Positions 6,032 through 53,277 of a stretch of 64,000 bases of DNA are shown here, one piece after another. Origin of the DNA: Tubulanus polymorphus (taxonomy: Eukaryota > Animalia > Nemertea). Both the position numbers and the translations under genes were made by a program. Numbering within the stretch: the first letter of the stretch is position 1; each line of letters starts with the position of its first letter. The notes below the pieces were generated by a model. It saw only the letters and a list, made by a program, of their open reading frames with translations. It did no database searches and was not told where the DNA came from. The DNA is taken from positions 3,372,175-3,436,174 of the forward strand of contig NC_134032.1 in NCBI RefSeq assembly GCF_964204645.1, read 5' to 3'.

Positions 6032-7500
6032 TATGTTTTACAACCACTTTTCGGGGAAAAACGTATTGAAATATTATATTTTGATTCTGTAACAGCTGAC
6101 ACCCCAATATTATTAAAATATAATGATAAAATATTGATAAGAAGACTTTCAGAAATAATTCCAAAACAAAATAAACTTAATATTTCGTATGGTGAAAAAG
6201 AATTGATACAGATAAATGGATTAATGGGTGTTTGGACAAGAAATGGATGGAAAAAGTTGAAGAATATAATTAGACATTAAACAAATAAATTGACAAGAAA
6301 ATTGATAGAGATATAACTAAATTAGGACATGTAGATGTTACTGAAGATCATAGTTTAATTAAACGAAATGGTGATGAAATAAAACCAACTGATACAAAAA
6401 TTGGAGATGAATTATTACATAAAACATTTTTTTCCAAGAATGAATCATATGTCATTTGATGAAATAATTAATAATATTTATAGCATAGAACCAGAAAAAT
6501 TAGAAGAAAAGGAATATTTTATCAAAGGATTTTTTATGGGAGATGGTTCAACAGGTGTGTATAATTATGTTGGTGGCAATAAATATTGTTGGTATTTATG
6601 CAATCAAGATTTGAAATTATTAGAAAGAATACAGAAATTCTGTGAAAAAGTTTATTCGTCACATAAAACATTTAGAATCGTGGACCATATGAAATCATCA
6701 GCAGTTTATAGAATAATCGTGAAAAACCACAAACATATTGCTACAAAATATAATGATGAATTCTATATTCATGCAATAGTGAAAAGTAATACTTCAACAG
6801 AAGAAAATAAGTGCCAGATTATGTATTAAATGCAAAATATAATCTAAGAAAATGGTTCTTCATTGGATTCTATGCTGCAGATGGGCAGAAGAAATATACG
6901 AGATATCCAGTAATAACATTTGCGCAAAAAGGAAAAGTTGCTATATCAGGATTGTATATATAATGTAATTCATTAGGATTTTATATGAATATTGAATTAA
7001 TTAAATACAAACCAAATTGTTTTATTTTAAGGGTTTTTGGGTTCCCATTCATCCAAAAAATACGGACGCCTACATACTAAAAATCAAGACAAATGACATA
7101 ACAAAAACTTAAAAACATTAAGACATCATTTTGATTTTAGCAATTATCCAAAAGATCATGAATTATTTAGCAATGATAATAAGAAATTTCCTGGTACATT
7201 TAAAGATGAATTAGGGGGTGATGAAATGATTGAATTTGTTGGGATAAGAAGTAAAATGTATAGTTATAGAACAAAAGATCATGAAGTAAAAGGAATAACA
7301 AAGCATGTGGTTGATAAACATAGAGAATTTCAAGATTATATAAAGTGTTTATATAATTCAATTGTAATGAAACATAAAATGAATTGTTTAAGATCAGAAG
7401 ATCACGAGATGTACATTAATGAAGGTGAGAAAACTAGCTTAATTCGACGATAAAAGATATATTTTGGATGATGGAATAAAAACATTACCTTATGGTCATC
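6032..7500 (+). pseudogene. polB: pPolB pseudogene containing an intein
   Basis: VLQPLFGEKRIEILYFD (6035-6085), then an insertion, then TDAYILKIKT...HHFDFSNYPKDH...RSKMYSY...KRYILDDG, matching ORF 10..1317. Confidence 0.93.
6086..7061 (+). mobile_element. Intein with LAGLIDADG homing endonuclease in PolB motif C (decayed)
   Basis: Block A SVTADTPILLK right after YFD; VWTRNGWKKLKNIIRH; block B VDVTEDHSL (TEDH 6340-6351); endonuclease motifs KGFFMGDGS (~6524-6550) and VPDYVLN..IGFYAADG (~6862-6885); ends KN then +1 Thr (ACG 7062). Contains stops and frameshifts; block F is missing. Confidence 0.92.
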
Positions 7501-9207: not shown

Positions 9208-10425
9208 ATGAATATAACAGTAGGACCGAGTATATGTTTTGGTTTTGATTTTAAACAGGAGAAAGAAATGAAATTTAACATTAACGATGTAATAACACGT
9301 ATTAAAAATATCGCATTTTTAATGAAACAACATTTGATTATGAAACAACAATAGATAAAGAAATTTATAATGTAGAAAAAGGTTCTGGTTTAATAAGAGA
9401 ATCTTTAAGATTTTATGAATTAGATGTCGATTTTCTTATCGATGATATTAAGAAAATAATAACTGAAATATATAAAAATGAAACTAATAATATTATCGAT
9501 GTTGAAATAATTATAACTAAGATAACTAAATATTTTGAAGATAGTAATTTTTGATTAATAAATGAGTGATAATAAGTGGATAATAACTGGTTTATATAAT
9601 GGAGCATTATTATCAGTTGGAACTGTTGGTTATACAATGATATTAAAAAAAGTATTTAAAATGGGAAGTGTTAATGTTGATAGATTTGATATCAATGATA
9701 TTTTAAAATTAACATTAGCAGTTACTTTATCTAATTTAACTATTGATTATTTGGAAAAACAAAAATATATTTCTCCTATTGACGGGTAATTTTTTTGCTA
9801 AATAAATGGCATCTGCAATTATAACTATTATAGGATCGGAAATTGTTAACGCTTAAGCATTTACAGGTGGTGGTTATTTATTTAAGCATATTGATAAAAA
9901 TAGTTCATTAGCAGAACAATGAAGACATAACTTAGCATTAGAGAAATATAATAAAGCTTCAGAAGAATATTGAGAAAAGAGACAAAATTATATGGATTAT
10001 ATTAATAAAGAATTATATTATCACAAAATTTCACTTAGAGATTTTCAATCAGTCGATGATGCAATGAGTTCATATAACGCAGTAACAAATAAAGAAAAAA
10101 CTACATCTATATAAACCTAAATGATCAGATTATTATACCCCAAGTAAAGAACAACAACAATATGAAATAATTTGGATTTTAGATGGAGCAGTTATAGTTA
10201 TGTTTGTAGCATATAAATTGACTAATTAGTAATTTTTTGTTAAATAAATGGATGATAAAGTTGATAATATTGATATTATTCCTCATGATAAAAATAAATA
10301 TAACTAAATTAAAAATATATTTGGAAAAACAAATATTAGAATTTGAAAATGACTTAAAAGTTAAAAAGAAAAAATATTTAAAAAGTAAAATTATATATTA
10401 TTTTATTATAAGTGGTCCAGTTACC
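9208..10425 (+). pseudogene. Copy-2 versions of the genes at 2490, 2847 (9562..9789 still open), 3093 and 3536 (truncated)
   Basis: Direct nucleotide homology to 2490-3715. Confidence 0.85.
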
Positions 10426-10632
10426 TTTTTTAAATTTTTAAATTTTTAATTTTATATCCTTAAATACTAATTTTTAAATAAATGGCACACATTGATATTT
10501 ATGACAGCAACACTATTGTGAATTAGCTGACTTAAAATGGTTGAAATTCTACAGAAGAGAATTCAATTTAGTATACATTGATATACCAAACAGCCTAAAC
10601 TTACGACACAGTAGTGCATATAGCTCTTTTAT

Positions 10633-10930
10633 CCTGGACCTACTGGTAGCCTTAACCTACTGGTAGCCTGAACGTACTGGTAGCCTGAACCTACTGGTAG
10701 CCTGAACCTGCTGGTAGCCTGAACCTGCTGGTAGCTTGAACCTACTGGTATCCTGAACCTACTGGTAGTCTGAACCTGGTGGCCTGAACCTACTGGTATC
10801 CTGAACGTACTGGTAGCCTGAACGTACTGGTATCCTGAACCTACTGGTAGCCTGAAGCTGGTTGCCTGAACCTACTGGTAGCCTGAACCAACTGGTAGCC
10901 TGAAGCTGGTGACCTGAACTTACTGGTAAC
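10633..10930 (+). repeat. Minisatellite, ~17-bp unit CCTGAACCTACTGGTAG
   Basis: Directly visible tandem array with some shortened units. Confidence 0.9.
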
Positions 10931-10952
10931 AACCTACAGGTAGGCTCGCGAA

Positions 10953-11034: not shown

Positions 11035-11285
11035 AACGGGGCAGTATTTCAATGTATCCGTAATTCTAGTTAGTCCCACTAGGGGGCGGTTTATGTATTT
11101 TAGTTAGTCCATTGACAGGTATAGGTCCCGCTAAGGGGCGGTTTATGTATTCTAGTTAGTCTACTTACAGGTATAGTTCCTGCTTGGGGGGCGTTATATA
11201 TATTCTAGTTTCTATTGACAGGAATAGGTCCGCTAGGGGGCGGTGTATGTTTTCTAATTTGTCCATTTACAGGTATAGGTCCCGC
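11035..11285 (+). repeat. ~55-bp tandem repeat containing a splice acceptor and exon-2 start (ACAG|GTATAGGTCC)
   Basis: Units GGGGCGGTTTATGTATTCTAGTTAGTCC..ACAGGTATAGGTCCCGC, 4-5 copies. Confidence 0.75.
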
Positions 11286-11368
11286 CAAATAACAATATCA
11301 TGCTAACAACCTATATCAATGTGTCTTCATTCGGCGTTTCCTTCGAAAACCGATCAGCCAGTCATCTT

Positions 11369-11452
11369 GGACCCAGCTCCACAGCTGTGAGTAAGAGTTA
11401 ACTCTGAGTTAAAATAAAAGAGTAAAATCTTAACTCGGAGACATTGGAACCC
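11369..11452. mobile_element. Palindromic MITE fragment, same family as 23160-23269
   Basis: GGACCCAG.TCCACAG.TGTGAGT..GAGTTAACTCTGAGTT..TCTTAACTCGGA shared with the 23160 copy. Confidence 0.6.
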
Positions 11453-11608
11453 CGAGGGTCCCGGACTCAGTTGCGCAAGTCGATACTTCAGAGAGACTGA
11501 GAGAGGGGTGTTACTACAGAGTCAGATTACAGGGTGCTGAGAGAGCTAGAGAGAGAGAGAGGTTTGTGTTACTGCAGAGTCACTGATTACAGGTCTCTGA
11601 GCTTCAAC

Positions 11609-12688
11609 ATGAATTTTACCACGATCTCTACGACTACTCCGCAGTGTATGAGCCGGTATCCACCAGAACGATGGGATCACGTTTTCAGCTATAAGATTTA
11701 CTTGTACGGATATTTGCCGGCTTCGGCTTTCGGAATGATTCTGAACTCTGTTTCTATTCTGGTATTCACAAAGATCGGTCGCGACACTTATCAAACTATA
11801 ATCATTCTCGCCTGGTTTGATTTACTGTTCCTATTTTCAGTGTTTCTTCTTTATCCACTGCGGATACTAATTATCCATTCAATACAAAATGAATACGTTC
11901 TCGGCCGCTGGGATGACTGGTATTTTGGACACGAGATTATAATTTGGGTTCTACCGCTGTTTTATACGTTTCAAATGGCAAAAAATTGGGCCGTAGTTAT
12001 AATCAGTTTTGAAAGACTTCTGGTTGTCGCGAGTCCGCTGTATTTCAGGCGATTCTGGAACAAAAAACAAATCATTTTTCTGTCGGTTTTAAATGCCTTT
12101 TTTTCCGCCGTTTGTTACTGGCCGTATTATTTTCCACTATACTTACCCGGAAGGACCACAGATCCCTGTTTTGGTCATTTATTTACTATGGGAGCTTTTG
12201 GTGCCAAAACAAGTCAAACAACTTTTGTTTATGGGTCTGACATTGCATTCAACTACGTATCTAATTCCTATATTTTCATGTCTGTTCTTTCACCTTTTAT
12301 TTTTCTGATTGTGATAAATCTAACTTTGTTCGGAATTATGTTATTTAGAAAACTAAATCGAAAGAAACAATGTCACACGGGCGCAGCGGCGCCTGGTGAA
12401 AAATCTACCGAACTCAAAATATTAAAATTGGTTCTTATAATTGTAGCTATATTTTTTACCTGTGAAATTCCCGCATCGCTGGATCGTATGTTGCATTTCG
12501 TCAGTAGGGGGTTGAGATTACCTCACGGTCTTCCCGAGGATGAATTGATGATCATGCGTAAAGTAGGAATTCTGCTCAGTGTTTTAGACTCATCCGTAAA
12601 TTTCTTCGTTTACTGCGCAACAAACGGCGCCTTTAGAAAAAAAGCTAAACGAATTTTATTGATAGATTATTTTTGTGATTCTAAATAG
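11609..12688 (+). CDS. Class A (rhodopsin-like) GPCR, FMRFamide/neuropeptide-receptor-like, single exon
   Basis: Seven hydrophobic segments; N-glycosylation site NFT; LAWFD (TM2), SFERLLVVASPL (TM3), FFTCEIP (TM6), SSVNFFVYC (TM7), helix 8 FRK. Likely ATG at 11609. Confidence 0.9.
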   Translation: MNFTTISTTTPQCMSRYPPERWDHVFSYKIYLYGYLPASAFGMILNSVSILVFTKIGRDTYQTIIILAWFDLLFLFSVFLLYPLRILIIHSIQNEYVLGRWDDWYFGHEIIIWVLPLFYTFQMAKNWAVVIISFERLLVVASPLYFRRFWNKKQIIFLSVLNAFFSAVCYWPYYFPLYLPGRTTDPCFGHLFTMGAFGAKTSQTTFVYGSDIAFNYVSNSYIFMSVLSPFIFLIVINLTLFGIMLFRKLNRKKQCHTGAAAPGEKSTELKILKLVLIIVAIFFTCEIPASLDRMLHFVSRGLRLPHGLPEDELMIMRKVGILLSVLDSSVNFFVYCATNGAFRKKAKRILLIDYFCDSK

Positions 12689-13382
12689 AAAAGAAAACGG
12701 GGTGCACAGCCAAGACTTAAGTCCAAAAGTGAAGAACGTGGTCTAAGTAGTTTTTTATGAGTGGCTAATTCGAGTGTTAAACCGGTCCCTTTATTGATAC
12801 ACCGGTGCTATGGTATTTGGGGTGTAAAAATCTTTATGTAACAAAACCTATCTTGAAGTTATAAACAATATGATATGGGGTCCAGTATATATCCAATATA
12901 TTTCATATATATATATATATTTCATATACATATTTCATATACATATTGATGGCTGACTGCATTACACCGAACGCGTGCTCCCTCTCAAACCTGTCCAATG
13001 ATTGGCCGGCGACTACATGTGTAACGTCTTGGACACGACATGGGTTTTCAAACTGCTGTTGCTGCTGCTGCTGCTGTTTGGAATTATTTGAAGGGTATTT
13101 TGACCGGTGATGAAATAAATACTTTCATTTAAGATGAGACCCCTCCCCTCCCCCATGAAGTAAAAGGCAAACTTATTTTTGGGCCCGAAGTACACCTAGC
13201 GCGGACTTCTCCCGGGTTACATTTCTAAAAGGTGTTTCAAAAATGTTTAAATCAACTGTTAATCTAAACGGTGATGGGTACGTATGACGTCATTACTGCC
13301 GGGTTCACTTTGGATTTACATAAAACTAAAAAAAAATTCACGCAAATCATTTTCGTTTGGATGAACACGCAACACGAAATTT

Positions 13383-13633
13383 GAGTACTGGTGTGGACTG
13401 CTCATTTGGATCACCGAGTACTGGTGTGGACTGCTCATTTGGATCACCGAGTACGGTTGCGGACAGCTCATTTCGATCACGGAGTACTGGCGTGGACTGC
13501 TCATTTGGATCACGGAGTACTGGTTTGGACTGCTCATTTGGATCACCGAGTACTGGTGTGGACTGCTCATTTGGATCACCGACTACTGGTTTGGACTGCT
13601 CATTTGGATCACCGAGTACTGGTGTGGACTGCT
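13383..13633. repeat. Minisatellite, 33-bp unit GAGTACTGGTGTGGACTGCTCATTTGGATCACC (~7.5 copies)
   Basis: Head-to-tail copies with no spacers; produces 11-aa repeat ORFs in several frames. Confidence 0.92.
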
Positions 13634-14515
13634 CTTTCAACAGGGCATGATAAAGGAAAAAAGTGAAGAGATAGTCAGGTAGGACAATTTTACGGGAGCC
13701 AGTTCCACAGATAGTTACAAATAGTTATAGATAGTTGCAGATAATGATTGATAGTTATTACTTGGACATTGCACGACTCAATGATCGCATGTTCATTTAG
13801 ATTTTATAAAATACATGTGGTCAAAATCAGTTGATTTTCAATGAAATTTGAACCTGATCTAATTTCAACTATCAGTGGAACTGAGTCGAGGAGTTCAGGT
13901 CACAGGCCTCCCTTACAGATACCCCTTGCAACCCTATGGCCCGATGGACAGTGCCCATGGATGGAGCCCAATAACTCATCATTTGAATGTATTTTTGCTT
14001 GTGATAAAATCAATGTTTTTGACGGGTAAAACATAATTTTCAATATTTTGTGAAAGATTTAATTTTCACAGAATATCTACGATATCAATTTTGACGCATC
14101 AAATAAATACCGTTACGTAGTTTAAACAATATCTACAATAGTAAACTTGGTTTTGAAAGTGTATCGAAGATCAGATTTGACGCATCAAAAACGTTAGAGG
14201 AACATTTTGTATGAAGAGTGAACATGCAATGTGTAATTCTCTTCTGGACAGAGAAAAAGATCGATTTCATCGGGAATAGGCCCATTTGAACATCTCAAAT
14301 ATTTCAGCGGAAACAATGCTATACCAAATTTCTAGTGAAAATATCGGCGAATATACCTTATTGACTTCTTTCAAACTATAACATCATCACATTTACTTAT
14401 GTCCTGAAAGGCGAATTCACTGACGGCCGGAGTAATTGGTAAATCAGGGTTTCATAGCAGAGGTCGTGCGGTCGACACACCACTCATCACCACAAGTAAT
14501 TTTCCCCCGTAATAA

Positions 14516-14842
14516 ATGGGAGATAGAAAAGCATTCTAAGCAACAATAAATAACAGAATAAAACCAACAAAAAAACAATTTGAAATAAAAAGGTTAGTCG
14601 ATGTTACAAAAGAAATTGAACACAAAATATTAAAATTAGAAAAGATAAGAACTAAATATGGAGAGAAAGTAACAGCAAATTTAAGTTACTGTAATGTCAG
14701 TACAACGCGAGAATTTAAAGTATTTTTACCTGATAAATGGTTTGCATTGAGTACAGAGGAATTAAAAGATTTAGAAGGATTTAAAATAATTTACCATGGG
14801 ATAAATGAAGACGGGCATCATGATTTAGAAGTTGTTGACTAA
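14516..14842 (+). pseudogene. Paralog of 22719..23045 (small KKL/YG/FLP protein) with an early stop
   Basis: MGDRKAF*ATINNRIKP..TKYGEKV..FKVFLPDKW..GHHDLEVVD. Confidence 0.8.
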
Positions 14843-15280
14843 ATAATTAAGAAATAAAAAAATAAAAAAATGAAAATCAAGAATCCGAATGGACAATTCA
14901 ATTGCTCCGCAAGATAGACAAAAGTAGTGAGATATTCAATTAATTAAAATAAATTTTTTTTTGCTTTTTTTCTAAAATATTAATCCATTTTTTTATTGTG
15001 AATTTTGGAATTTCAGAATTTTTTTCATTTTTAATAGCACTAGTTTCAGAATTATTAAAATCATAAATTTTATTTGATTTCTTATACCAACTACACCCAA
15101 TCAAAATGAATACAATTACAAATCCAGTTGCAAAATATAGATATTTATCAAATATTCTATTATTAGACGGATTAGAAATAACAATATTTTCACCATTTTA
15201 ATTAACATTTTTATTACTTATTTTTTTTCTTTTACAGCTTTTTATATTCCTGTGATTTAATTTCTAATTGCCGAGAGCAT

Positions 15281-15872
15281 TCAATTTGTTTCTGAGTTCT
15301 CGGTTTTTTCTTCACAGTTAATTCTTTCACCTCTTCCACTTCTCTCATTTATTCTAGAAAAATTTTTACTTTCAATATTTGAAAATGTTATAACTCCAGT
15401 TGTTAATAGCGTCATAAATCCATCTAATTGAAATGATAAATATCCAATCCATTTATTTAATTCGGTCATAACTAAATAATCATTTTTTAAATCGGAATAT
15501 AATCTATTTTCAATAATTACATAATTTACTATAACCTTTTACTACATTTTCTGATATCGCATCATTAATTCTAGCTATTCTCGCAGTTTCATAAATCTTA
15601 AATAATTTAATAATTTCATCTGATTTCATTGTATCTAATTCATTATAAGTTAAATTTTTACTAATAAAACTTTTACATTTTCCAGATGCTATTATCATTT
15701 CTAATTGATGTTTGCAATAAAGATAATATTCATAATTATTGTTTGTAGTAATATCATTTAAAGCACCATTATTATCTGACGCTAATTTTGTTTCTGCTAT
15801 ACCTAAATCATCCAAAGTTTTTTCAATTGGAACATCACTACTTTTAGATTTTATTTTCTTTTCACCTCCCAT
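15281..15872 (-). pseudogene. Polinton hypothetical protein, paralog of 20772-21374
   Basis: ORFs 15510..15872 and 15281..15469 match 21009..21374. Confidence 0.75.
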
Positions 15873-16094
15873 TTATATAAGAAACAAATTACTTGTGTTG
15901 TTGCAACTAGAATTCAACTACAATTTAACTAGAATGTAACTAAAAATATACTAGATTAACAAGCTATTTGAAATATTGTTGTTTTTATTCATTTTGTGTT
16001 GAATTTTATTAGATTTTTGTTTCAACTACCAATAACTAGAATTCAACTAGAATGTAACTAAAAATATACTAGATTAACAAGTTAGTTGAGTTTA

Positions 16095-16701
16095 AATAAA
16101 TTCATATTTAAATGGGGGTTGTAATCGAAATAGAAATTTTTATCTTTAATTATTTTTCAATTTATCCATATATTCATTATGTAAATCATTTGGAATTATA
16201 TCATTTTCCTCAAGTGCATTTTTCATTGATTTTCTATCTTTATTGTTGAATAATACTATAAATCTAGTGTTTTCTCTAAAATCTTTAACAATTGAATTAT
16301 ATTTTTGATTTAAAACCCATGTTGTTATCCCAAAATGTCTCCCAGAGAAAAATAAAATAACATAACTCACTCTCTCTAACTTTTGAAGCATGTAAATTAG
16401 CACAATCATCTATAATGAATAATGTATTTGATCCTTTATAAATATAAATTGCTATTTTGATACAATAATCTAAATTTTCTTTAACTGTTTTAGGATTTAA
16501 TACAATAAATTTATCATTTCTAGTTATATTTCTATCATAAGTTTGATTAAATTCATACGTTGGACAAAATAATACTATATTATCAAAATAGTTTTTATAA
16601 ATAGTTTCTAATAAATTTGATATAAAATAAGTTTTTCCACAATTTGTTACACCAGAAATAAACATATTATGAGGCTCAAATATAAATAATTCCTTATTCA
16701 T
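16095..16701 (-). pseudogene. Genome-packaging ATPase (A32/FtsK-like), frameshifted
   Basis: Walker A SGVTNCGKT, Walker B LFIIDD, SGRHFGIT..LNQKY..RENTR. Confidence 0.88.
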
Positions 16702-17309
16702 TTATATTTTTTAAATTTACTTGATAATATCCATTCATTAAATTTATCTAGCCATCCAACCCATTTTACTAAATCTTCTAATTTATAGACATATGGTTTT
16801 GTTGTCATTACCTTTTTTATTTTATACATTTCTCTAGTAAAATTACGATCCTATCCTTTATCAAATATCTTTTTATGGTGGTTCCAAAAAAGTGCTTCCC
16901 GAGGCGTGATCTCCGCCACGACCCGGTGCAGTGAGGGAGGGAGGAATTAATTTATATTTAGAATTATTAAAATGTTCATTCCAACTAACTCCACATCCTG
17001 TTGTTGCACAATAAACAGCAAAATTTAATTGGTTCTGCCAATACTTCATATTAGATTTTAATAACCATTGTTTTTCATCTTTCAATTTTTTTAAATTAAT
17101 TGAATATACATGAAATATATTTTCCATCTTTGCATTAAAATTATTAGTTTCAGTAACATAAATATCTAAATTAATTAATGAATTTAAAACTTCATTTCTA
17201 TATGAAATATTTTTATTAAAATCTATTGCAGGAATATTATATTTAATTGATTTATTATATTGAAAAGCTTTTGGAAAACTATCTACCATTTATATAATAA
17301 AACAATTAA

Positions 17310-17738
17310 TAATTTATTAATTCTTTTTATAATTTATCCTGTTCTTCAACTGTTATATTACCATCTAAACTTATTATATAATCTAATGTATTTTTTAATT
17401 TATTAATTTCTATTATATTTATTTTTTTCATTATTACTTTTTATTACTTTAATTTTGAACTTGTGCCGGTTAAATACACTTGAACTTAAACCTAAAGCTC
17501 CAATTGAGATAGCTAAAGGTGTTAATGGTGAGAATAACGCAATAAATGTTATTACAGTACTTATTGTAACTGAACCACTAATAATAAAATAATATATAAT
17601 TTTACTTTTTAAATATTTTTTCTTTTTTATCTTTAAATCACTTTCAAATCCTAATATTTGTTTTTCCAAATATAATTTTAATTTAGTTTTATTAATATTA
17701 TGAGGAATAATATCAATATTGTGAACTTTATCAACCAT
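17310..17738 (-). pseudogene. Paralog of the 3536..3970 2-TM gene
   Basis: MVDKVHNIDIIPH..SKIIYYFIISGSVTIS; frameshifted near the 3' end. Confidence 0.8.
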
Positions 17739-17799
17739 TTAATTAGAAAATAAATTACTAATTAGTAAATTTATAAGCAACAAATAATACAATAACTGA

Positions 17800-18700
17800 A
17801 ATAATATGATATTTCAAGGCATTCAATCGGAAAACCATAATAAATTAAGATCAGGAGCTAATGACGCAATAGTAACTCGTGCCTACAGATAATTTGATTG
17901 AAAAGATTTATGGAAGCAAATATAAAATTCCATTAGACTTTGAATTGATAAATAATAATGCACCTTTATATAAATATGTAATTCAAGAAGATATTATATT
18001 TGAGATAAAATTTGCTCCTGTAAATGGAATTGTATTATCTAGCGTTGTTAAAGATATGGGTTATAAATTATCGAATATATGTATAGAATATGACACAGTA
18101 ACTAATGAAAATATTGCTAGCACAATTCAAACTCAATACAATCAAGGATTTTCATTATTATATGATTATATTGATAAATTTAAAACTGTAACTATTAATG
18201 CAAATGATGAAATAATTAATGAGAACATTAACTTCCCAAGAAGATCTATTAAAGGTATATTAATATTTTTTTACCATTGCAACATATTCTAATGGCGCAA
18301 TAAAGGTTGATAATTATTATAATCCTGAAATAACAAAAGTAGAAATAACTATCGAAGGAATAGCAAATAAAATATTTTGTCAAGGAATGAGAATGATAGA
18401 TCAGTGGCCAGAAATTGGAAAACATTTTATGAATGAAAAAGTAAAATCATTTGAAAATTGTAATATTAATCAAATTGTTTATTATACCGGCAATAAATAC
18501 GCACTATGGTTAGATTTTAGAACAACAGAGGATAATTCATTACATGGTTCTGGGAAAAAACTACAAAATACAAAAGATGGAATACAATTATTCATGACAA
18601 AGAAAAGAGGAGACAAAAATTTCAAAATGCACATTTATGTTATATCTGACGCACAATTAAATATTGTAAATTCACAATTAGATAGTATTCAATATTATAA
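17800..18700 (+). pseudogene. Major capsid protein (double jelly-roll, hexon-like), C-terminal part, frameshifted
   Basis: YKIPLDF, NENINFPRRSIKGILIFF, FYNPEITKVEITIEG, YALWLDFRT.EDNSLHGSG, DGIQL motifs. Confidence 0.82.
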
Positions 18701-18728
18701 ATATAAAGTTAAAATTAAGGATATATAA

Positions 18729-19855
18729 ATGGGTGGTAAAAAAACTCCTAATACTAAAGAACAATATTTAAGAAATTTATATTACAACCCTGAGAGTTCG
18801 GTTGCTTATTCTACTACCAAAAATATATGGCGTCAAATAAAACAAGATAAATTAGATAAGATAATCCCACAAAATTTAGTTAAATATAAAGATATAAATG
18901 AATTTATGTTAGAACAATCAACATATACAACACATAAAAAATTGTTAGAAAATATAAAACTCGTAAAACTATGGCAAGTTATGTAGGTCAACAGTGGCAA
19001 GGAGATTTAATTGATATGAAAAATGTTAAGAAAGATAATGATGATTATTGGTGGATATTGAATATGATTGATATTTTTAGTCGTTATGTATGGAGCTTCC
19101 CACTTTATAGAAAAGATGCTGTACAAAAATCAAATGTTTTAAGAAAATTTCTTTCGGATGATAAACTAAAACCAGAAAAAATACAGTTTGATGATGGAAA
19201 AGAATTTGATAATTCACTTGTTCATGAGCTCTTAGATAATCATTATATTAAATATTTTTCAACAAAATCGGATAAAAAAGCAGCAGTTGTTGAACGATTT
19301 AATAGAACATTAAGAACAAGAATGTGGAAATATTTTACAGCAAATAATACTTTTAAATGGATTGATGTTTTACCAAAATTGATAGAAGGATACAATAATT
19401 CTTATCATTCTTCTATTGGAATGAAACCTATTGATGCTAGAAAACCTGAAAATGCTGAAATTGTTTGGAAAAATTTATACGGAGCATTTCTTGTAGATGA
19501 TTTTGGTGAACCTAAATTTAAAGTTGGTCAAAATATTAGAATTTCTAAGTTTAAAAAGATATTTGATAAAGGATACGATCGAAATTTTACTAGAGAAATA
19601 TATAAAATAAAAAAGGTAATAACAACAAAACCATATGTCTATAAATTAGAAGATTTAGATGGTGAAGAAGTTGATGGCTACTTTTACGAAGAAGAATTAA
19701 GATTAACTACAGAAAATCGAGAACAAGAATATAAAATTGAAAAAGTATTAAAAACAAAAACTATTAAAAGAAAAAAATATTCTTTAGTAAAATGGGTTGG
19801 ATGGCCAGATAAATTCAATGAATGGATATTATCAAGTAAAATTAAAAATATATAA
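18729..19855 (+). pseudogene. Retroviral-type (rve) integrase with C-terminal chromodomain; one frameshift near 18950
   Basis: LYYNPES, WQGDLIDM, IDIFSRY, QFDDGKEF, VERFNRT, YNNSYHSSIGMKP; chromodomain YKIEKVL..LVKWVGWPDKFNEWI. Confidence 0.93.
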
Positions 19856-20465
19856 ATGAATAAGGAATTATTTATATTTGAGCCTCATAATATGTTAATT
19901 TCTGGCGTAACAAATTGTGGAAAAACTTATTTTATATTAAATTTATTATAAACTGTTTATAAAAAGTAATTTTGATAATATAGTATTATTTTGTCCACTA
20001 TATGAATTTAATCAAACTTATGATAGAAAAATTACTAGAAATAATAAATTTATTATATTAGATCCTAAAACAGTAAAAGAAAATTTAGATAATTGTATTA
20101 AAATAGCAATAGATATTTATAAAGGATCAAATACATTATTCATTATAGATTATTGTGCAAATTTACATGATTCAAAAATTAGAGAGAGTGAGTTATGTTA
20201 TTTAGCTTTTTCTGGCAGACATTTTGGGATAACAACTTGGGTTTTAAATCAAAAATTTAATTCAATTGTTAAAGACTTCAGAGAAAACATTAGATTTCTA
20301 GTTTTATTCTACAATAAAGATAGAAAATCGATGAAAAATGCACTTGAGGAAAATGATATTATTCCACATGATTTACATAATGAATATATGGATAAGTTGA
20401 AAAATAATAAAAGATCAAAATTACTATTTAGATTACAACACCTATTTAAATATGAATTTATTTAA
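19856..20465 (+). pseudogene. Packaging ATPase pseudogene
   Basis: SGVTNCGKT Walker A; homologous to 16095-16701; stops and frameshift. Confidence 0.88.
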
Positions 20466-20469
20466 ATTC

Positions 20470-20750
20470 AACTGGCTTGTTAATCTAGTTGAATTCTAGT
20501 AACATTCTAGTTGAATTCTAGTTATTGGTATTTGAAACAAAAATCAAATAAAATTCAACAATATTTTAACTAGCTTGTTAATCTAGTATATTTTTAGTTA
20601 CATTCTAGTTGAATTCTAGTTATTAGTAGTTGAAACAAAAATCAAATAAAATTCAACAAGAAATAAATAAAAACAACAATATTTCAGCTAGCTTCTTAAT
20701 CTAGTTGAATTCTAGTTACATTCTAGTTAAATTCTAGTTGCAACATCACA
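20470..20750. repeat. Intergenic repeats rich in TTCTAGTTGAATTCTAG / CTTGTTAATCTAG
   Basis: Three degenerate units; inverted copy at ~15890-16090; related motif at 52260-52330. Confidence 0.7.
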
Positions 20751-20771
20751 ACTAATTTTTTTGTTATATAA

Positions 20772-21374
20772 ATGAGAGGTGAAAAGAAAATAAAATCTAA
20801 AAATGGTGATGTTCCAATTGAAAAAACTTTAGATGAACTTTAGACAGAAAACAAATTAATTCCAGATGATGGTGCTTTAAATAATGTTACAACAAATAAT
20901 AATTATGAATATTATCTTTATTGTAAACATCAATTAGAAATATTAATAGCATCTGGAAAATGTAAAAATTTTATCGGTAAAAATTTAACTTAAAATGAAT
21001 TAGATACAATGAAATCAGATGAAATTATTAGATTATTTAAGATTTATGAAACCGCGAGAACCGCTAGAATTAATGACGCGATATCAGAAAATGTAGTAGA
21101 AGGTTATAGTAAATTATGTAATTATATACTACCAATTGAAGATGAAAATAGATTATATTCCGATTTAAAAAATGATTATTTAGTTATGACTGAATTAAAT
21201 AAATGGATTGGATATTTATCATTTCAATTAGGTGGATTTATGACATTATTATCAACTGGGGTTATAACATTTTCAAATATTGAAAGTAAAAATATTTCTA
21301 TAATAAATGAACAAGGTGGAAGAAGTGAAGGAATTAACAGTGAAGAAAAAACCGAGAACTCAGAAACAAATTGA
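20772..21374 (+). pseudogene. Polinton hypothetical protein with premature stops
   Basis: Homologous to 15281-15872(-). Confidence 0.75.
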
Positions 21375-21750
21375 ATGGTCTCGGCAATTGGGAATTAAAT
21401 CAAAAGAATATAAAAAAGCTGTAAAAGAAAAAAATAAGTAATAAAAATGTTAATAAAAATGGTGAAAATATTGTTATTTATACTCCTTCTAATGATAGAA
21501 TATTTGATAAATGTCTATATTTTACAGTTGGATTTGTAATTGTATTCATTTTGATTGGGCGTAAAATCAAATAAAATTCATGATATTAATAATTCTGAAA
21601 CAACTGCTATCAAAAATGAAAATACTTCTGAAATTCCAAAATTGATAATAAAAAAATGGATTAATATTTTAGAAAAAAAAAAAAAAAAAATAATTGAATA
21701 TCTCACTACTTTTGTCTATCTATGCGGAGCAATTAAATTGTCGAGATAAG
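21375..21750 (+). pseudogene. Small Polinton TM protein, decayed
   Basis: LYFTVGFVIVFILIG hydrophobic stretch; inverted copy at ~14900-15280. Confidence 0.5.
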
Positions 21751-22150
21751 TCATTTCGGATTCTAGATATTCACTATTTTTATTAATCTATTTTGTTTTT
21801 TAATTTGAAGTTTTTACTTGAATATTGTATTACAGTCGTTTCTTATTATTAGTTTTTTCTTAAATTGAAAGATAGTATCACTGGGCGTGATGCTAAATGA
21901 ATATTTGAATTTGAATTTGAATTTGTTAATCAATTAACATGGTAATTGATTACTAATTTGATTAAAAATTATATCATAATTAAGTTAAAAATCCATAATT
22001 CATTTATCAGTTTTCATTCCTATATTCTTTTCATTCAGAATAATTTATAATTTCAAATTTCACATATTTCTTTAGTAAACACCATACCAGCAACATTTAC
22101 TTAGGTGTTTTAGCTAAGTATATAAGGCAATTCATTCAACCACTGGAGTG

Positions 22151-22438
22151 CCGCCGGGCTTGGCTTGCAGGGGCATTTCGAAAATGCACCTTTGTCCACC
22201 CTCCGTGGTTCTCCTTCAGTTTCGACTTTCGATCCTCCTTTCGGGGGTAAGGGGTTGATAGGATATGCATTAGGCGCCTTTAATATAATGTGTTTCCTGT
22301 CAACCATTGAAGGAGAATTGGTGAGGTGTGGGTCACAGGGGTGTAAGTAGAAATGCTTGGGGATAGGTATCTCGTGGCGCCTCTCAATAACGGGATGCTT
22401 ATCCCCTAAAAACTCTGCGAGTCAAGTCGGGTGGTTTT
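22151..22438 (+). ncRNA. Candidate highly structured ~285-nt ncRNA within the Polinton terminal region
   Basis: Long helices with many G-U and no A-C pairs on the + strand; TATATAA at 22119-22125; TTTT at 22435-22438; two GGCGCC loops (see findings). Confidence 0.68.
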
Positions 22439-22718
22439 GCTAAAACTTACCTTAAAAACATTGAAATATTCCTTTTAATCACGAGAAAGAATGTATCCTC
22501 CTGTCCTGTATGTGGGTTGTATGTACTGCGTGCTTATTATATAACTGCTAGCTATCCAATATAACAACAACGTTGAATTGCAACACCTGTTTGATCGATC
22601 AATATTCAAATGAAGCACTATCTTATGATAACATGTAACAGATGTTTGGCTGTATGATTGTAGTTGTTTGTAAAACGACTCAGGTCATTTTTAGATATTC
22701 ATTATTTTTATTTTTTAT

Positions 22719-23045
22719 TTAATCAACAATTTCTAAATCATGATGACCGTCTTCATTTTTTCCATGATAGATTATTTTAAATCCTTCTAAATCTTTTAAT
22801 TCCTCTGTACTCAATGAAACCCATTTATCGGGTAGAAATACTTTAAATTCTCGCGATGTACTAACATTACAGTAACTTAAATTCGCTGATACTTTCTCTC
22901 CATATTTAGTTTTTATCTTTTCTAATTTCAATATTTTATGTTCAATTTCTTTTGTAACATCAACTAACTTTTTTATTTCAAATTGTTTTCTTGCTGGTTT
23001 TATTCTGTTATTTATTGTTGTTAAGAATGCTTTTCTATCTCCCAT
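22719..23045 (-). CDS. Terminal small Polinton protein, homolog of 1347..1700
   Basis: Intact ORF, TAAATG start; IKKL..TKYGEKV..FLPDKW..YHGKNEDGHHDLE. Confidence 0.78.
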   Translation of the reverse strand: MGDRKAFLTTINNRIKPARKQFEIKKLVDVTKEIEHKILKLEKIKTKYGEKVSANLSYCNVSTSREFKVFLPDKWVSLSTEELKDLEGFKIIYHGKNEDGHHDLEIVD

Positions 23046-23159
23046 TTATAAGGAAAAAAAATTACTTGTGGTGATGAGTGGTGTCTAGTACTCTAGTACT
23101 CTGGTACGAAACCCACATCTTCCAATTACTAATGCTTTGTCGAAATCCACCGTTGAACA

Positions 23160-23269
23160 GGACCCAGTTCCACAGTTGTGAGTTATAGTTAGCTCTGAGT
23201 TAAAGTTAGTTCATTTTCAATGAGTTAACTCAGAGTTGAATCTTAACTCGGAACTGTGGAACTGGACCC
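23160..23269. mobile_element. Palindromic MITE
   Basis: CCAGTTCCACAGTT...AACTGTGGAACTGG inverted ends plus internal GAGTT/AACTC symmetry. Confidence 0.7.
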
Positions 23270-24074
23270 AGGATTCTAAGACTGTGCAGAAAACCCGTTA
23301 TCGCTGCTTTGCAGCTATATTTTAGTTTTGATTTTAGTTTATTTCAGAGAAAAGCAGAAGATTAAAATTACAATTAAGTTAAACAATTCAAATAAGAGAG
23401 AGAATCTTCGTTTTTAGATAGTGGAATTCGTCAACGGAACACAAGCCCACTTTGTATTATTCAGTAATGTTCAAAATGTTTGGGCTGTATGGTCCGAATA
23501 TGGGAACCAGAAAATCCACTTTAACAAAACGTCGCCTCCCAGTGAGATCAACTCTATTCAAAATGAAAGCCCTATCTCTCAATTCAGACAACTACAAGCA
23601 GGCAGGTGTTTGGTTGAATGTGTTTATATTACAGTCGACTATGAATTATAATTTTTAGAAGAAGAGGCTTATTTTACTGCATTGTTCAAGTCCAGTTCTT
23701 CTTCTTCATGTTTTCTATTTAGGGATACATTTTTTTCCAAGCGATTTTTATACTAATTGATTTGGTTAGGTGCTCTAGGCAAAATGTTCAGGCAATTGGA
23801 TTTCAGAAATTTGAACAATACGAGCTGTTAAGATGTGTTGGACTAATCAGACTGAAACACCATGCGCCTTTCGTACCTACGCAGTCCTAGAAATGCATTT
23901 GGGGAGTGTTAAAATCTTTGGGAAAAAGCCAATGAAAATTGTATTCATATATGACATGATTAGTTAAAAAACCAATCAGATTTTTAGAGGTTGGTCCAGA
24001 TTTCGGAATGCATATATAATCAGTATTTTGGTGTCATCCACCGCATTCAACTGAGAATTTCATCAGACGAGATC

Positions 24075-49403: not shown

Positions 49404-50639
49404 GAGATGTATACTACAGCAATTATGAGATATATATATACAATCCAGAGACAAAGAGACTGAATTCAAGTAATCAGAGATGATACAAACTATGGAAAAT
49501 TAACGTAGAAACAGTTAAACGCTAAAATGGATTAAAGGGAAGCAAACCAAAAGGTAATTATAAACAACAATAGTGAGTATAATTATAAATTGAAACTTGA
49601 CATCAGTAGTAAAGAGACAAACTTAGGGGCAGTTGAATTAAAACAAAGGTGATTACAAGTTAAGAGACTAAAATTAATGAGTGACAAATAACAAAGGATC
49701 AAAGGGGAAATCAAGTGTTGAGTTTAACCAGTTTACAGAGGAATTTTGATATTTTGATATTTGAAGTTTATTATGGGGTGAAAAATCATTGTTAAGATTT
49801 ACAACGTTGTTCGAATTTTCAATTATCAATGCAGATTCCAAAATATGTCTTTTAGTTTTATCGTTGCAAGGGTAAAATCAATTCATCATTAGCGAAATCA
49901 AAATTGTGTGAGTTCTGAAATACATGACTAGCAACTCCGCCTTCAGGTTTAAAGTTTTTTACATCTAACTTGTGCTCTTTTAAGCGTTGGTTAAGGTTCC
50001 GACCTGTTTCTCCTATATATACTTTGTCGCAAACTTTACAAGGTATTTTATAAATTTCACAGTTGAGGGATTCGGTTTTAGGTTTGTTATTAATCAATAT
50101 GAGTAATAGGGGTTTAGTTGTTCTAGGCTAAAGGTCGAACGTAGAGCTCATTAAAAAACAAATATTAAAAGTAATTTAAAACTATAATATATTTTCATAG
50201 CCGTGTGCATTTTATATTATAACTAGATATTTATTCTAAGATATTAATAATTTAAATTTTAAAAGCATATTGTATTAAATCAATTGGTCGCTCCGCTTCG
50301 GTACCGCTCCGCTCCGCGACCAATTGATTTATTTACAATACACAAATTCATATAATCAAATATATTCAAATAATAATAAATATTCTATTATTTAACTAAA
50401 ATACACACGGCTATGAAAATATATTATAGTTTTAAATTACTTTTAATATTTGTTTTTAATGAACTCGACCATTCAACCTTTAACCTAGAACAACTAAACC
50501 CCTATTACTCTTAAAATATTCATTTATATGAATAACATATAAATTGATAGATTATTCAATATAAAAGTAACGAATAATTAACGAGCTCTTATAGAATAGA
50601 TATATAGATATATTTTAAACATATTTCAATATTTATATT

Positions 50640-50905
50640 TGTATGAGTTAGATTTTTAAACATAAAAAATGTGGGTAAAGTGTGAGTGAAATAATTCATA
50701 TTTAAATCATTGAATATTTATATTTATATGTGTTAAATTCTTCTTTTTAAACATAAAAAGTGTGAGTAAAGTGTGAGTGAAATAATTCATATTTAAAACA
50801 GTGAATATTTATATTTATATGTGTTAGATTCTTATTTTTGAACATAAAAAGTGTGAGTAAAGTGTGAGTGAAATAATTCATATTTAAAACATTGAATATT
50901 TATAT
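50640..50905 (+). repeat. ~89-bp tandem repeat (3 copies) upstream of the cargo ORF
   Basis: AAACATAAAAAGTGTGAGTAAAGTGTGAGTGAAATAATTCATATTTAAA repeated. Confidence 0.8.
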
Positions 50906-50909
50906 TTGA

Positions 50910-51575
50910 ATGAGTTTTAATAAAAATTTTGTTATAAAAATGAAGAAAGAAGAAGAACCCAACTTTAAAATCGAAATCAATCAAACTAATAAATCATTTT
51001 CACAGTTTAACATTAGAAATTATATTTCAGCAACAAATTTTGTGTCCGCCAGACATTATAAAATCGATAACATAACTATGATTAATCAAATATTATCAAA
51101 TGAAATTTATTTAATTACTGAACTAGTAGATACTTTTGATAATGGCGTTAAAAATCCTAAATTGTTCAATACAGTTTTAAATTTTAAAGGAACTTCAGAT
51201 GAAAACATAATAAATATTCTTAAAACTCCTTTCAATGAAAGAAATGATGATATAATACTTTCTAAAGATTACAATGATTTGATTAACTTAAGAATTGAAA
51301 AAAGACAATTATATTTCAATTATGATAATAAACAAACTATCTATAATGAAAATTCATCAAATATTGGTATTCAATGTGAATTAGATAATGAAAAATCATA
51401 TATATCAGATATTGCAGTTCAATGTTATTTAGATGTTGAATTTAGAAAATTCAATCCTATTGAAAAAGTGTATTGTTATTGCGGCGGCAAATATTTAAGA
51501 TCACATAAATCAAAACATTATCAAACAGTTAAACATATCAATTATGAAAAGAATAATAAATATATATTGAAATAA
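50910..51575 (+). CDS. Mini-Polinton cargo protein with C-terminal CxC..H..H zinc finger
   Basis: Intact 221-aa ORF ending KVYCYCGGKYLRSHKSKHYQTVKH. Confidence 0.65.
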   Translation: MSFNKNFVIKMKKEEEPNFKIEINQTNKSFSQFNIRNYISATNFVSARHYKIDNITMINQILSNEIYLITELVDTFDNGVKNPKLFNTVLNFKGTSDENIINILKTPFNERNDDIILSKDYNDLINLRIEKRQLYFNYDNKQTIYNENSSNIGIQCELDNEKSYISDIAVQCYLDVEFRKFNPIEKVYCYCGGKYLRSHKSKHYQTVKHINYEKNNKYILK

Positions 51576-51733
51576 GAGTATGTTTCAAATATAAAGTAGT
51601 TAAAGCATCGAGAAATTAGTTTAATAAATAACTGTTAGGTAGTAAGTTTAATTGTAATTTGATTTGAAACATATAAAACTTATTTCTAAAATATTAAATA
51701 TTTATCAATTTAATAATTTTTTTTCTTAAATAA

Positions 51734-51952
51734 ATGGATGGTTTCATTCCAACTGGGAAAAGTGATTTGAAGCATTATCTTGTAGCAGGAGGATTAATAT
51801 TGGCAGCATTATATTTTTACTATGAGAATTTTTCAAAAGATTTGATGAATGAAAATAATAAATTAAGTAAAAAATTAAAGAAGTTAAAAGGAAACAATCA
51901 CAGAAATAAAAAGAATAAAAAATGTAATTTAGAAAATGATTTAGAGGATTAA
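51734..51952 (+). CDS. Small TM plus basic coiled-coil cargo protein
   Basis: T-tract followed by TAAATAAATG start, as in the Polinton genes; YLVAGGLILAALYFY. Confidence 0.55.
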   Translation: MDGFIPTGKSDLKHYLVAGGLILAALYFYYENFSKDLMNENNKLSKKLKKLKGNNHRNKKNKKCNLENDLED

Positions 51953-53277
51953 AACAGCATCTTTTAATTTCATATATTTTGACTATAAAAATGAGTGAAA
52001 ATATATTAAACTTATTACATCTATATATAAAAATCAACAGAATATTAAATCAATTATTATGCTTACAGGTTTATTTTCATTCTCAGTTTATACTACAAAA
52101 CAGTTGTTAACAATTCTATGATTGCTGTAAAATTAGATACACTGAATTAATAGAAAATATAAATTATATTTCAGATAGATAGAATAATATTAAATGCTGT
52201 GAAGTATGTAATAAAAGATATAAAAATTTAAAGAATTTAAAAACTCATAAATATATTCATGAATTTCTTGTTAAATCTATTTGAATTCTAGTCAATTCTT
52301 GTTAACCAATAGCGTGACTAGAATTCAAATAGAGCGGAGCGGCAGCGAAGCGAAGCGACCAATTGATTTAATACAATATGCTTTTAAAATTTAAATTATT
52401 AATATCTTAGAATAAATATTTAGTTATAATATAAAATGCACACGGCTATGAAAAAATATTATAGTTTCAAATTACTTTTAATATTTGTTTTTTAATGAGC
52501 TCGACCGTTCGACCTTTGGCCTAGAACAACTAAAACCCTATTACTAATATGTTACTAAGTTTATTATTGTATTTAAAGATAAGTTGTTTATTTAGTTACC
52601 GAAGAGAAACTTTAGAATTCTCGAGGAAAGGTACATACGGTACAATGATAGGCTGTTTATCGGTAGCCGACGTCGGAGTTCTAAGGTTCTTATTTCTAAA
52701 ATGGGTAGTACGAGCTGTAAGGAGAGCTTTTTTCAAGATGAAATCGGGTAGGCAAGTTTTTTTAGAGATTGGTTAATATGTTGTATTTCATCGGGCAGAA
52801 ATTAGGGGTCGCAAATTCTCAAAGCGTTTAATATCCGGAGAAGTAAAAGAGAAGTAATGAAGGTAGGATTCAGCGTTGGTAGGTTTCCTATAAACCGCGA
52901 ATTTCAAAAAGGATCCACTGTTAAAAATCAAAACATCCAGAAAAGGTATTTTACTATTAGATTCCCATTCATACGTAAAAGCCAGAGACGGGTAAAGGCA
53001 GTTTAAATATATAAGAAAGTTATCAACATTGAAGTCAGAGGGAACCAAAGCCAGAACATCGTCAACATATCTGAGCCAGATTTTACGGTGAATATCAGTA
53101 TAAAGAGGCAATATTTCAGTATATATCTTAGAAAGAATTTGACGATAATGATTTTGAGAAGTTTGCATTTGAAGAGATGAGTGATGACATAAAAGCTGTT
53201 GCATAGCGCTGTTTCTCTATTATCCTTTGCTGGTAACTAATCTGAGAAACAATTCAATTTTTTCTTTTCTTTTTTAG

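Follow-up and report, generated by a model that had tools for sequence, protein, structure and literature searches.

The nearest described counterparts of the RNA reported here are structured RNAs of DNA viruses, namely the VA RNAs of adenoviruses, EBER1 of EBV and BocaSR, which is reportedly a structured RNA polymerase III (Pol III) transcript of bocaviruses. The terminal stem and 3′ end of VA RNA bind Exportin-5 and are cut by Dicer (accessible part of PMC7589676), and a loop-loop pseudoknot shapes its wobble-rich rod, which then blocks the sensor without triggering it (accessible part of PMC6599070). EBER1 offers a case in which one protein binds three stem-loops (PMC4378190, in part). Adenovirids themselves descend from polintons, according to the available portion of PMC11161782.

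Palindromic or complementary loops form the other point of comparison. In the HIV-1 DIS the palindrome lies near the middle of a short loop, and the phi29 pRNA, which is essential to a portal motor, carries two different loops that complement each other. The kissing loops of OLE and GOLLD were demonstrated by a switch from one palindrome to another, and some symmetric kissing loops are simply invariant (PMC12286853, in part). The hexamer GGCGCC itself also occurs in the primer binding site of MPMV, where it is predicted to mediate dimers (PMC3884649, in part).

No structured non-coding RNA in Polintons was found in the literature covered here, the scope of which left out most subscription journals, Repbase and Dfam; the words 'noncoding', 'non-coding', 'VA RNA' and 'hairpin' do not occur in the accessible text of PMC8502044, nor does 'noncoding' in that of PMC11161782. 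Here we describe a 286-nt folded unit that sits in a ~ 910-bp cassette carried by a Polinton that is decayed and present in multiple copies, within a stretch of 64,000 nucleotides of genomic DNA (the window), and compare it with the systems named above.

Two hairpins with near-identical palindromic loops

A preliminary description of the window had reported two hairpin loops built around GGCGCC. Both are present as described, GGCGCCTTTAATA at 22273–22285 and GGCGCCTCTCAATA at 22376–22389, and the hexamer is indeed palindromic and, in the predicted fold, exposed in both loops as a self-complementary sequence. With regard to the stems, said to be of 20 and 17 bp, hairpin 2 (22357–22408, + strand; stem 22359–22406 plus two outer pairs) has 17 standard pairs out of 17, while hairpin 1 (22253–22305, + strand) falls short by one (19 of 20), with a single mismatch at 22264/22294. 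Nor are the stems as different in sequence as had been stated, given that GATAGG followed by (A)TAT stands in both 5′ arms (22257–22266 and 22362–22370); this common sequence suggests that the hairpins may be an old duplication. The loop formula GGCGCC(Y)nAAUA likewise proved too strict in its (Y)n part, where a purine was found at 22281 in 118 of 724 reads.

GGCGCC occurs eight times in the window, and only loops 1 and 2 lie within such hairpins. A scan of the window for stems with 16 of 17 pairs returned five sites on the + strand, the three besides hairpins 1 and 2 being A+T-rich. Eleven letters, the six of the palindrome among them, are common to the two loops; the probability that a second loop would repeat the identical 7 + 4 letters was about 1.6 × 10−7 at fixed anchors, a figure calculated post hoc.

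Other readings of these letters were considered. Mimicry by the loops of the primer binding site for lysine tRNA would be a minor idea, the preceding U being found only in hairpin 2, where it is paired. The flanks of GGCGCC do not match the E2F consensus, and the candidate telomerase template CCCUAA (22404–22409) is altered in the second subfamily of copies described below.

A 286-nt fold on the plus strand

Hairpins 1 and 2 are parts of a larger, gene-like fold of 286 nt (22150–22435, + strand), which had escaped the preliminary description. According to the prediction, a 22-bp terminal stem (5′ strand 22150–22172, pairing with 22413–22435) leads into a lower three-way junction that bears hairpin 2, and from there into a central rod of 41 bp (22173–22356, + strand; 22173–22220 with 22306–22356) enclosing an upper junction, which bears two small hairpins and hairpin 1.

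The folding energy of the 441-nt region was −177.3 kcal/mol for the + strand (z = −8.24, with 0 of 100 shuffles as good) and −120.5 kcal/mol for the − strand (z = −3.42), and a 290-nt core reached −154 compared with −87.8 for the lowest-energy tile among 92 from the window. The core contains 90 Watson-Crick and 21 G·U pairs (111 in total) and four 1 × 1 mismatches, none of which is A·C (21 G·U vs 0 A·C, p = 5 × 10−7). As a decaying DNA repeat would give G·T and A·C about equally, this asymmetry points to selection on the single + strand, most simply as RNA.

Two further readings, a structure that single-stranded DNA adopts while the element replicates by strand displacement and the neutral remains of an inverted duplication, were also considered and would be very improbable. 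Polinton replication exposes single strands, and a fold is likewise predicted for the + strand as DNA (z = −5.94); Polintons are described as protein-primed replicons (PMC11161782, in part). However, the DNA fold amounts to just −59 kcal/mol, with the − strand weaker still, 21 of the 111 pairs are G·U (G·T in DNA), most single changes between copies pass through G·U or G·T, and the whole fold is bracketed by promoter-like and terminator-like signals. Given the double changes found in the hairpin stems of the second subfamily, neutral decay can be excluded.

Copies in public sequencing runs and conservation of the fold

Copies were compared using four contig sets of one study, each containing part of the cassette, and one raw genomic run (X5; 1,934 million letters), all under one species label. 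Read depth in X5 was about 450–840 over the RNA, similar to the Polinton flanks, which corresponds to some 50 to 900 copies if the genome is assumed to measure 0.2 to 2 Gb. A second subfamily, about 20% diverged, accounted for about 35–40% of the reads. One contig of this subfamily (set X1) spans 22268–22417 with 22 differences, all 22 of them also present in the read-variant table.

The second subfamily keeps all 37 hairpin pairs. In hairpin 2, 19 of 19 positions are paired despite six single changes and one double change. Hairpin 1, for which the unaligned 5′ letters of the X1 contig were read by eye against 22253–22267, is paired at 20 of 20 positions, with four double and two single changes, and the stem mismatch of the window copy is found in that copy alone, with 455 of 455 reads carrying another base. 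Conservation of palindromic loops in homologues had been named beforehand as a check on the loop-pairing proposal, and both loops are conserved and still palindromic between subfamilies ~ 20% apart, while the stems change: loop 1 is unaltered and loop 2 has one change in its U/C-rich middle. Changes affected 1 of 27 loop positions compared with 27 of 138 elsewhere (p = 0.02, for one subfamily pair and with a test chosen after seeing the data); for GGCGCC alone, the count of 0 of 12 among the difference rows listed did not reach significance (p = 0.07). The listed differences, which cover subfamilies within the species, include no replacement of one palindrome by another.

Differences were then placed on the fold of the window copy, using 34 of the best 40 of 52 difference rows (five upstream rows and the private mismatch were left out). 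Sixteen keep the pair, nine fall on unpaired bases and nine would break a pair unless the partner had changed as well. Three of these last nine are resolved by a change in the partner, and 22356 appears unpaired; the other five rows belong to the rod (22317 twice, 22323, 22324 and 22326), where the 5′ strand of the second subfamily is unaligned. Both members of the predicted pair 22160/22425 are variable, in 11% and 12% of reads, frequencies that do not show linkage. Hairpin 1 and the 3′ strand of the rod (+1, −1) keep their length in the second subfamily. Collectively, the kept pairs and the conserved loops indicate that structure and loops are under selection, and the 286-nt unit is, with high confidence, a selected RNA structure.

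A tandem TTTCGA at the upper junction (22219–22232) is found in both subfamilies, and the 5-bp hairpin adjoining it is absent from the second; the motif might form a small hairpin or act as a DNA signal resembling box B.

Transcription signals and searches for known RNA families

Upstream of the fold, TATATAA (22119–22125, + strand) probably represents a TATA box of the Pol III type-3 kind, 31 bases before the first paired base, at which transcription presumably starts. The first TTTT after it (22435–22438, + strand), a likely Pol III terminator, coincides with the end of the terminal stem; as a TTTT-free body was also obtained in 22% of shuffles, this signal is weak alone. The segment 22110–22149, TATA box included, and the TTTT end are common to both subfamilies, with no listed difference in the box, unlike the first ~ 25 nt of the RNA, which no longer align between them. 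Alternatively, the TATA box may belong to a decayed ORF on the − strand that starts near 22086. As for internal promoter elements, no match to the usual box A pattern (TRGCNNARYGG) was found within two mismatches and a relaxed pattern matched at five places, one of them at 22161; box B was matched once with one mismatch, at 22227, and its longer pattern not at all. Type-3 Pol III promoters have their TATA box near −30 (PMC7279448, in part). From these signals we predict that the 286-nt unit is probably a stand-alone Pol III transcript.

An upstream TATA box without good internal boxes is typical of the host type-3 genes U6, 7SK and MRP (PMC7279448, in part), and would suit a host Pol III RNA gene of a family outside Rfam that was captured, amplified as a Polinton passenger and selected for the host. 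The same could be said of the one listed difference in 336 between the decayed window copy and the read majority across the RNA, as opposed to many in the flanks, and of the read depth, somewhat greater for the RNA than for the flanks of the cassette. However, the flanks adjoining the RNA are also common to both subfamilies, and no Rfam match was obtained at gathering score or at a meaningful E-value. Specifically, the 64-kb window gave zero matches at gathering score; with E-values up to 10 allowed, region 21650–22750 gave two chance matches (E = 8.2 and 8.8) to unrelated bacterial models; covariance models of 7SK, MRP, RNase P, SRP, vault and Y RNA were without a match, and a tRNA and tmRNA search of the window returned none. 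In view of these results, and of the carrier element described below, capture of a host gene seems improbable.

Searches with the loops and hairpins gave no relatives either. The sole match to a two-loop pattern in viral contigs (L001) is a repeat inside a phage ORF (z = −2.2) without such stems, and 12 prokaryote loci with the pattern have 3–9 of 20 flanking pairs per loop compared with 18–19 in the window. Two single-hairpin patterns matched zero and zero times in viral contigs, and blastn of the RNA against phages returned nothing.

The carrier element and its accessory cassette

The window displays the hallmarks of a Polinton, namely an rve integrase, an A32-type ATPase, a capsid gene and a protein-primed polymerase, the last two recognised by atlas likeness. 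The integrase, with a chromodomain, was identified by profile match (18971–19855, + strand) and is followed by the packaging ATPase gene (19856–20465, + strand; Pox_A32, E = 7.3 × 10−5 for the C-terminal frame), interrupted by a stop at codon 32. The capsid-like gene (17806–18728, + strand) is in pieces, three of which match a 414-aa protein of the related element L002; its atlas likeness of 0.97 to Capsid_N/DJR-like clusters is a lead only, with a low recognition score. The C-terminal part of a protein-primed family B polymerase (1–1317, + strand) resembles DNA_pol_B_2 atlas clusters at 0.97, the family being assigned to 14–37% of their members, and this ORF had no match in Pfam, PHROG or PDB. 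A 108-aa Polinton ORF of no known family (22719–23045, − strand) is convergent with the RNA, and the element likely ends at 23130.

The statement in the preliminary description that the element encodes a polymerase and a packaging ATPase needs correcting. The ATPase gene is present, though it and the capsid gene are both broken in the RNA-bearing copy; the polymerase ORF belongs to another copy ~ 21 kb away, with a host-type receptor ORF in between.

An inverted sister copy of the same element end (14431–16875, − strand) matches both flanks of the cassette and lacks 21793–22687. Taken as inverted arms, 14431–16875 and 19552–23130 are about 88% alike and surround the capsid and integrase pieces; their matching ends, 14431 and 23130, are in inverted orientation and 88% alike, and the flanking 6-mers differ. 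Either the span 14431–23130 is a single element whose inverted arms are very long, or two copies have recombined there. The cassette with the RNA (21785–22691), absent from the sister copy, is bounded by direct repeats, of which the left one is 24 nt long (21761–21784, 92% like 22689–22712, with a similar motif after a stop codon in L002) and the right one (22689–22712) stands just past the stop of the 108-aa ORF. With the missing piece bounded in this way, loss by recombination between the repeats would be the simplest reading. A joint that skips the cassette, from 21771 to 22711, was also found in eight reads of run X5 and in one X3 contig, and in the X3 contigs the cassette had about one-tenth of the summed depth of the flanks (the depth of contigs does not measure copy number).

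A SINE or other retroposon with a target-site duplication is an unlikely origin, the RNA lying mid-cassette with 360 and 250 bases on either side and the repeat resembling an intergenic motif of L002. Related elements have shuffled gene blocks with different accessory genes after the same block (in L002, a nucleoside-kinase-like gene), and the RNA cassette resembles an accessory module of this kind. Both the occurrence of the bounding repeat between genes of L002 and the use of the same position for other accessory genes also speak against capture of a host gene.

Related Polintons were recovered by their ATPase at 13 metagenome loci (partial contigs), whereas viral contigs contained none by ATPase, capsid or integrase and prokaryote genomes none by the 108-aa ORF. 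No GGCGCC, G+C island or real blastn match to the RNA was found at the 13 loci (partial, L002 being without its first 574 bases). Four of them (L002 and L005–L007) have a capsid gene, an integrase and an ATPase, the ATPase being 72–79% identical, and the RNA is not in their available stretches. With the related contigs partial and animal genomes outside the collections, these data show that the RNA is optional without establishing its uniqueness.

A scaffold or packaging role had been put forward in the preliminary description, with the phi29 pRNA as a model. The absence of the cassette from the sister copy and from the available stretches of 13 of 13 related loci tells against it, and a packaging role is unlikely for an RNA that is optional beside ATPases 72–79% identical. 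A pRNA-like ring on the packaging ATPase or the capsid would be supported by the co-occurrence of the RNA on the same strand with an A32-type ATPase and a capsid-like gene, and by nothing else. The RNA is not found wherever a cognate ATPase is found (in partial related contigs, as above), and pRNA has two different complementary loops and serves a portal motor; we regard such a ring as barely credible.

Other features of the window and of a related element

In a second, decayed polymerase copy (6050–7120, + strand), the N-terminal piece of which had no Pfam match, an insert starting SVTADTP follows directly on the YFD motif; it contains TEDH in a different frame, as well as a LAGLIDADG-like ORF (6383–6829; Pfam E = 0.0047, below the cut-off). 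From these motifs, it appears to be an intein with a homing endonuclease at the pol-c site, which to our knowledge is unusual in an animal Polinton polymerase. The receptor ORF between Polinton copies (11501–12688, + strand) is intronless and of the 7TM kind (Pfam Srsx and 7tm_1, E about 1 × 10−5); taken with the type of element, it suggests that the host is likely an animal. The host-type DNA there has tandem arrays at 10592–10942, 11071–11288 and 13350–13670, with units of 17, 51–52 and 33 bases.

Just outside the element end, a short repeat (23158–23270) has 20–30 times the read depth of the Polinton and partial copies at 11364–11450 and 56045–56113, and about 2,100 reads have a joint at which 111 bases are missing; it is possibly a small non-autonomous transposon. 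A further element, A+T-rich and 2.4 kb long (50097–52550), has inverted ends of 219 bp (95% alike) and, internally, tandem repeats of 91 bp, together with a frame of 221 aa.

The ATPase gene is separated from the next ORF (20467–20777 and 15898–16089) by three 95-nt repeats rich in CTAG and GAATTC, and similar sequence occupies this place in L002, L003 and L011 as well; it is a possible regulatory or origin element. A 97-bp non-coding block (21685–21781) is 83% like L002 1859–1955, where it has different neighbour genes and the opposite orientation, and it is a possible promoter module travelling with gene shuffling. The accessory gene of L002, an apparently intact related Polinton, lies at 9769–10407 (− strand) and is thymidylate/nucleoside kinase-like (PHROG 761, E = 9 × 10−20).

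Pairing of the loops

The two loops are predicted to be each other's best pairing partner within the RNA (6 bp, −14.1 kcal/mol), and on this modelling we lean slightly towards their pairing with each other in some form. The alternative that both loops, with their GGCGCCU and AAUA ends, bind the same protein, of the host or of the element, and so form a two-site sponge or scaffold, in the manner of EBER1 and L22, agrees with the eleven letters held in common, not merely the six of the palindrome, and with the invariance without covariation that is expected of a protein site. It leaves a perfect all-G+C palindrome unexplained, however, and pairing of the two exposed hexamers is predicted in any case. 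Among random 13-nt loops, 1.4% have a 6-nt palindrome made up of G and C only (10.7% have any 6-nt palindrome), for which reason pairing is favoured over a pure protein site; we consider the latter rather unlikely.

If the loops do pair, the contact may lie within one molecule or between molecules. A path along hairpin 1, a 6-bp kiss and hairpin 2 measures 43–45 bp, compared with 41 bp for the rod plus about six unpaired steps, a loose match that chance could produce about a fifth of the time. The joint between hairpin 1 and the rod has no unpaired base on its 3′ strand; with hairpin 1 stacked on the rod, the loops would stand about 12 nm apart and could pair only between molecules. In each loop the palindrome is at the 5′ edge, with 7–8 nt behind it ending in AAUA. 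A loop strand crosses the minor groove in H-type pseudoknots, and the AAUA-ended half of the loop resembles such a strand. A two-molecule cofold (−321 vs −308) models strand exchange rather than kissing and was set aside.

The preliminary description had raised contacts between molecules, besides a kiss within one, with two loops per molecule giving dimers, rings or chains, as compared here with OLE, ROOL, GOLLD and manA. A palindrome is needed only for pairing of like with like, and a fixed pair within one molecule could have drifted into two unlike loops that still complement each other, yet the loops stay the same; subfamilies 20% apart are, on the other hand, too close to reveal drift. Contacts between molecules would be the sole option with hairpin 1 stacked on the rod. 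However, the helix lengths would allow closure within the molecule, which would compete at low concentration, and the position of the palindrome differs from that in the HIV-1 DIS. Natural RNAs shorter than 200 nt do form pentamers and cages by means of two kissing loops (accessible part of bioRxiv 10.64898/2026.07.01.735769). Assembly between molecules nevertheless seems unlikely as the main use of the loops, and the same grade is given to a combined possibility, an abundant, bivalent Pol III RNA that would switch between a closed monomer and rings or chains through its identical palindromic loops. In the model, helix lengths fit an intramolecular kiss slightly better than rings or chains, and pairing mainly within one molecule is our first choice, though of less than even weight, with twin protein sites and multimers not far behind.

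Discussion

Our best overall explanation, tentative as it is, is a small Pol III RNA with an intramolecular GGCGCC kiss that acts as a double-stranded RNA (dsRNA) decoy. Duplication of a hairpin with a palindromic loop would have provided a kissing partner at once. Hairpin 1 would fold back along the central rod and meet hairpin 2 head to head, with the A-rich 3′ half of each loop placed along the minor groove of the 6-bp kiss helix. The 22-bp terminal stem and U tail could be a handle for export and Dicer, and the compact rod could counter the RNA defences of the host in the manner of adenovirus VA RNA. That the RNA is a decoy for dsRNA-handling proteins is suggested by this analogy and is held tentatively.

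Polintons have been described as protein-coding elements, and a selected, probably Pol III-transcribed RNA would show that they also carry RNA effectors. Such an RNA would also bear on whether VA-type RNAs originated more than once in the lineage that gave rise to adenoviruses and on how Polintons handle small-RNA silencing. If the bivalent, switching RNA considered above is real, no RNA gene would have been described in Polintons before it, and it would be a Polinton counterpart of adenovirus VA RNA as well as a eukaryotic example of RNA-only kissing-loop assembly. A natural head-to-head kiss bracing a 40-bp rod and a two-valent ring former would both be of interest to RNA structural biology, and with a short RNA that is predicted to fold firmly and has natural variants, the question of kissing can be decided with one in vitro transcript.

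Among cellular RNAs, 7SK, RNase MRP/P RNA and SRP RNA are similar in size (270–340 nt), in a TATA box near −30, in a U-tail end and in paired ends. They differ in that the Polinton RNA has no Rfam match at E-values up to 10 and is carried at high copy by a mobile element, and none of their motifs was recognised in it. The phi29 pRNA shares the two loops per molecule and the proximity of a packaging ATPase gene, but the loops of the Polinton RNA are near-identical palindromes and the RNA is optional in its element family.

In common with the HIV-1 DIS, the MPMV pal and the PBS palindrome, a 6-nt G+C palindrome is displayed in a hairpin loop. Unlike in those retroviral dimerisation signals, there are two such loops per molecule, the palindrome is at the 5′ edge of a 13–14-nt loop, the RNA is not genome RNA and the context is not retroviral. 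OLE, ROOL, GOLLD and manA have symmetric loops with short palindromes, some of them invariant (PMC12286853, in part); these RNAs are bacterial or phage-borne, mostly far larger and held by many contacts, and the Polinton RNA matches none of them in Rfam. Palindrome switches, reported for OLE and GOLLD in the accessible part of that source, were not seen in the Polinton RNA.

EBV EBER1 and bocavirus BocaSR are structured Pol III RNAs of viruses, comparable with the RNA predicted here; the Polinton RNA has no likeness to them in sequence or Rfam, is longer and has what appears to be an invertebrate-type Polinton context. Compared with VA RNA, which is about 160 nt long, it has 286 nt, an upstream TATA box in place of good internal boxes, and two matching palindromic loops on hairpins of 17–20 bp. 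GGGU and ACCC do not occur in the VA order, the sole ACCC (22198) standing before all five GGGU, and the fold leaves them unpaired in that register. With neither box A, nor GGGU-ACCC, nor an Rfam match, this is not a VA RNA, although the terminal stem and the four-U terminator are those expected of one. The carrier of VA RNA I/II belongs to a related DNA virus lineage, and the likeness extends to paired ends with a stem of about 22 bp and a U4 end, to a junction domain, to a long wobble-rich stem and to the proposed loop-loop contact (PMC7589676 and PMC6599070, both in part). By this analogy the Polinton RNA, which is predicted to be expressed, would in our model work like a viral Pol III RNA.
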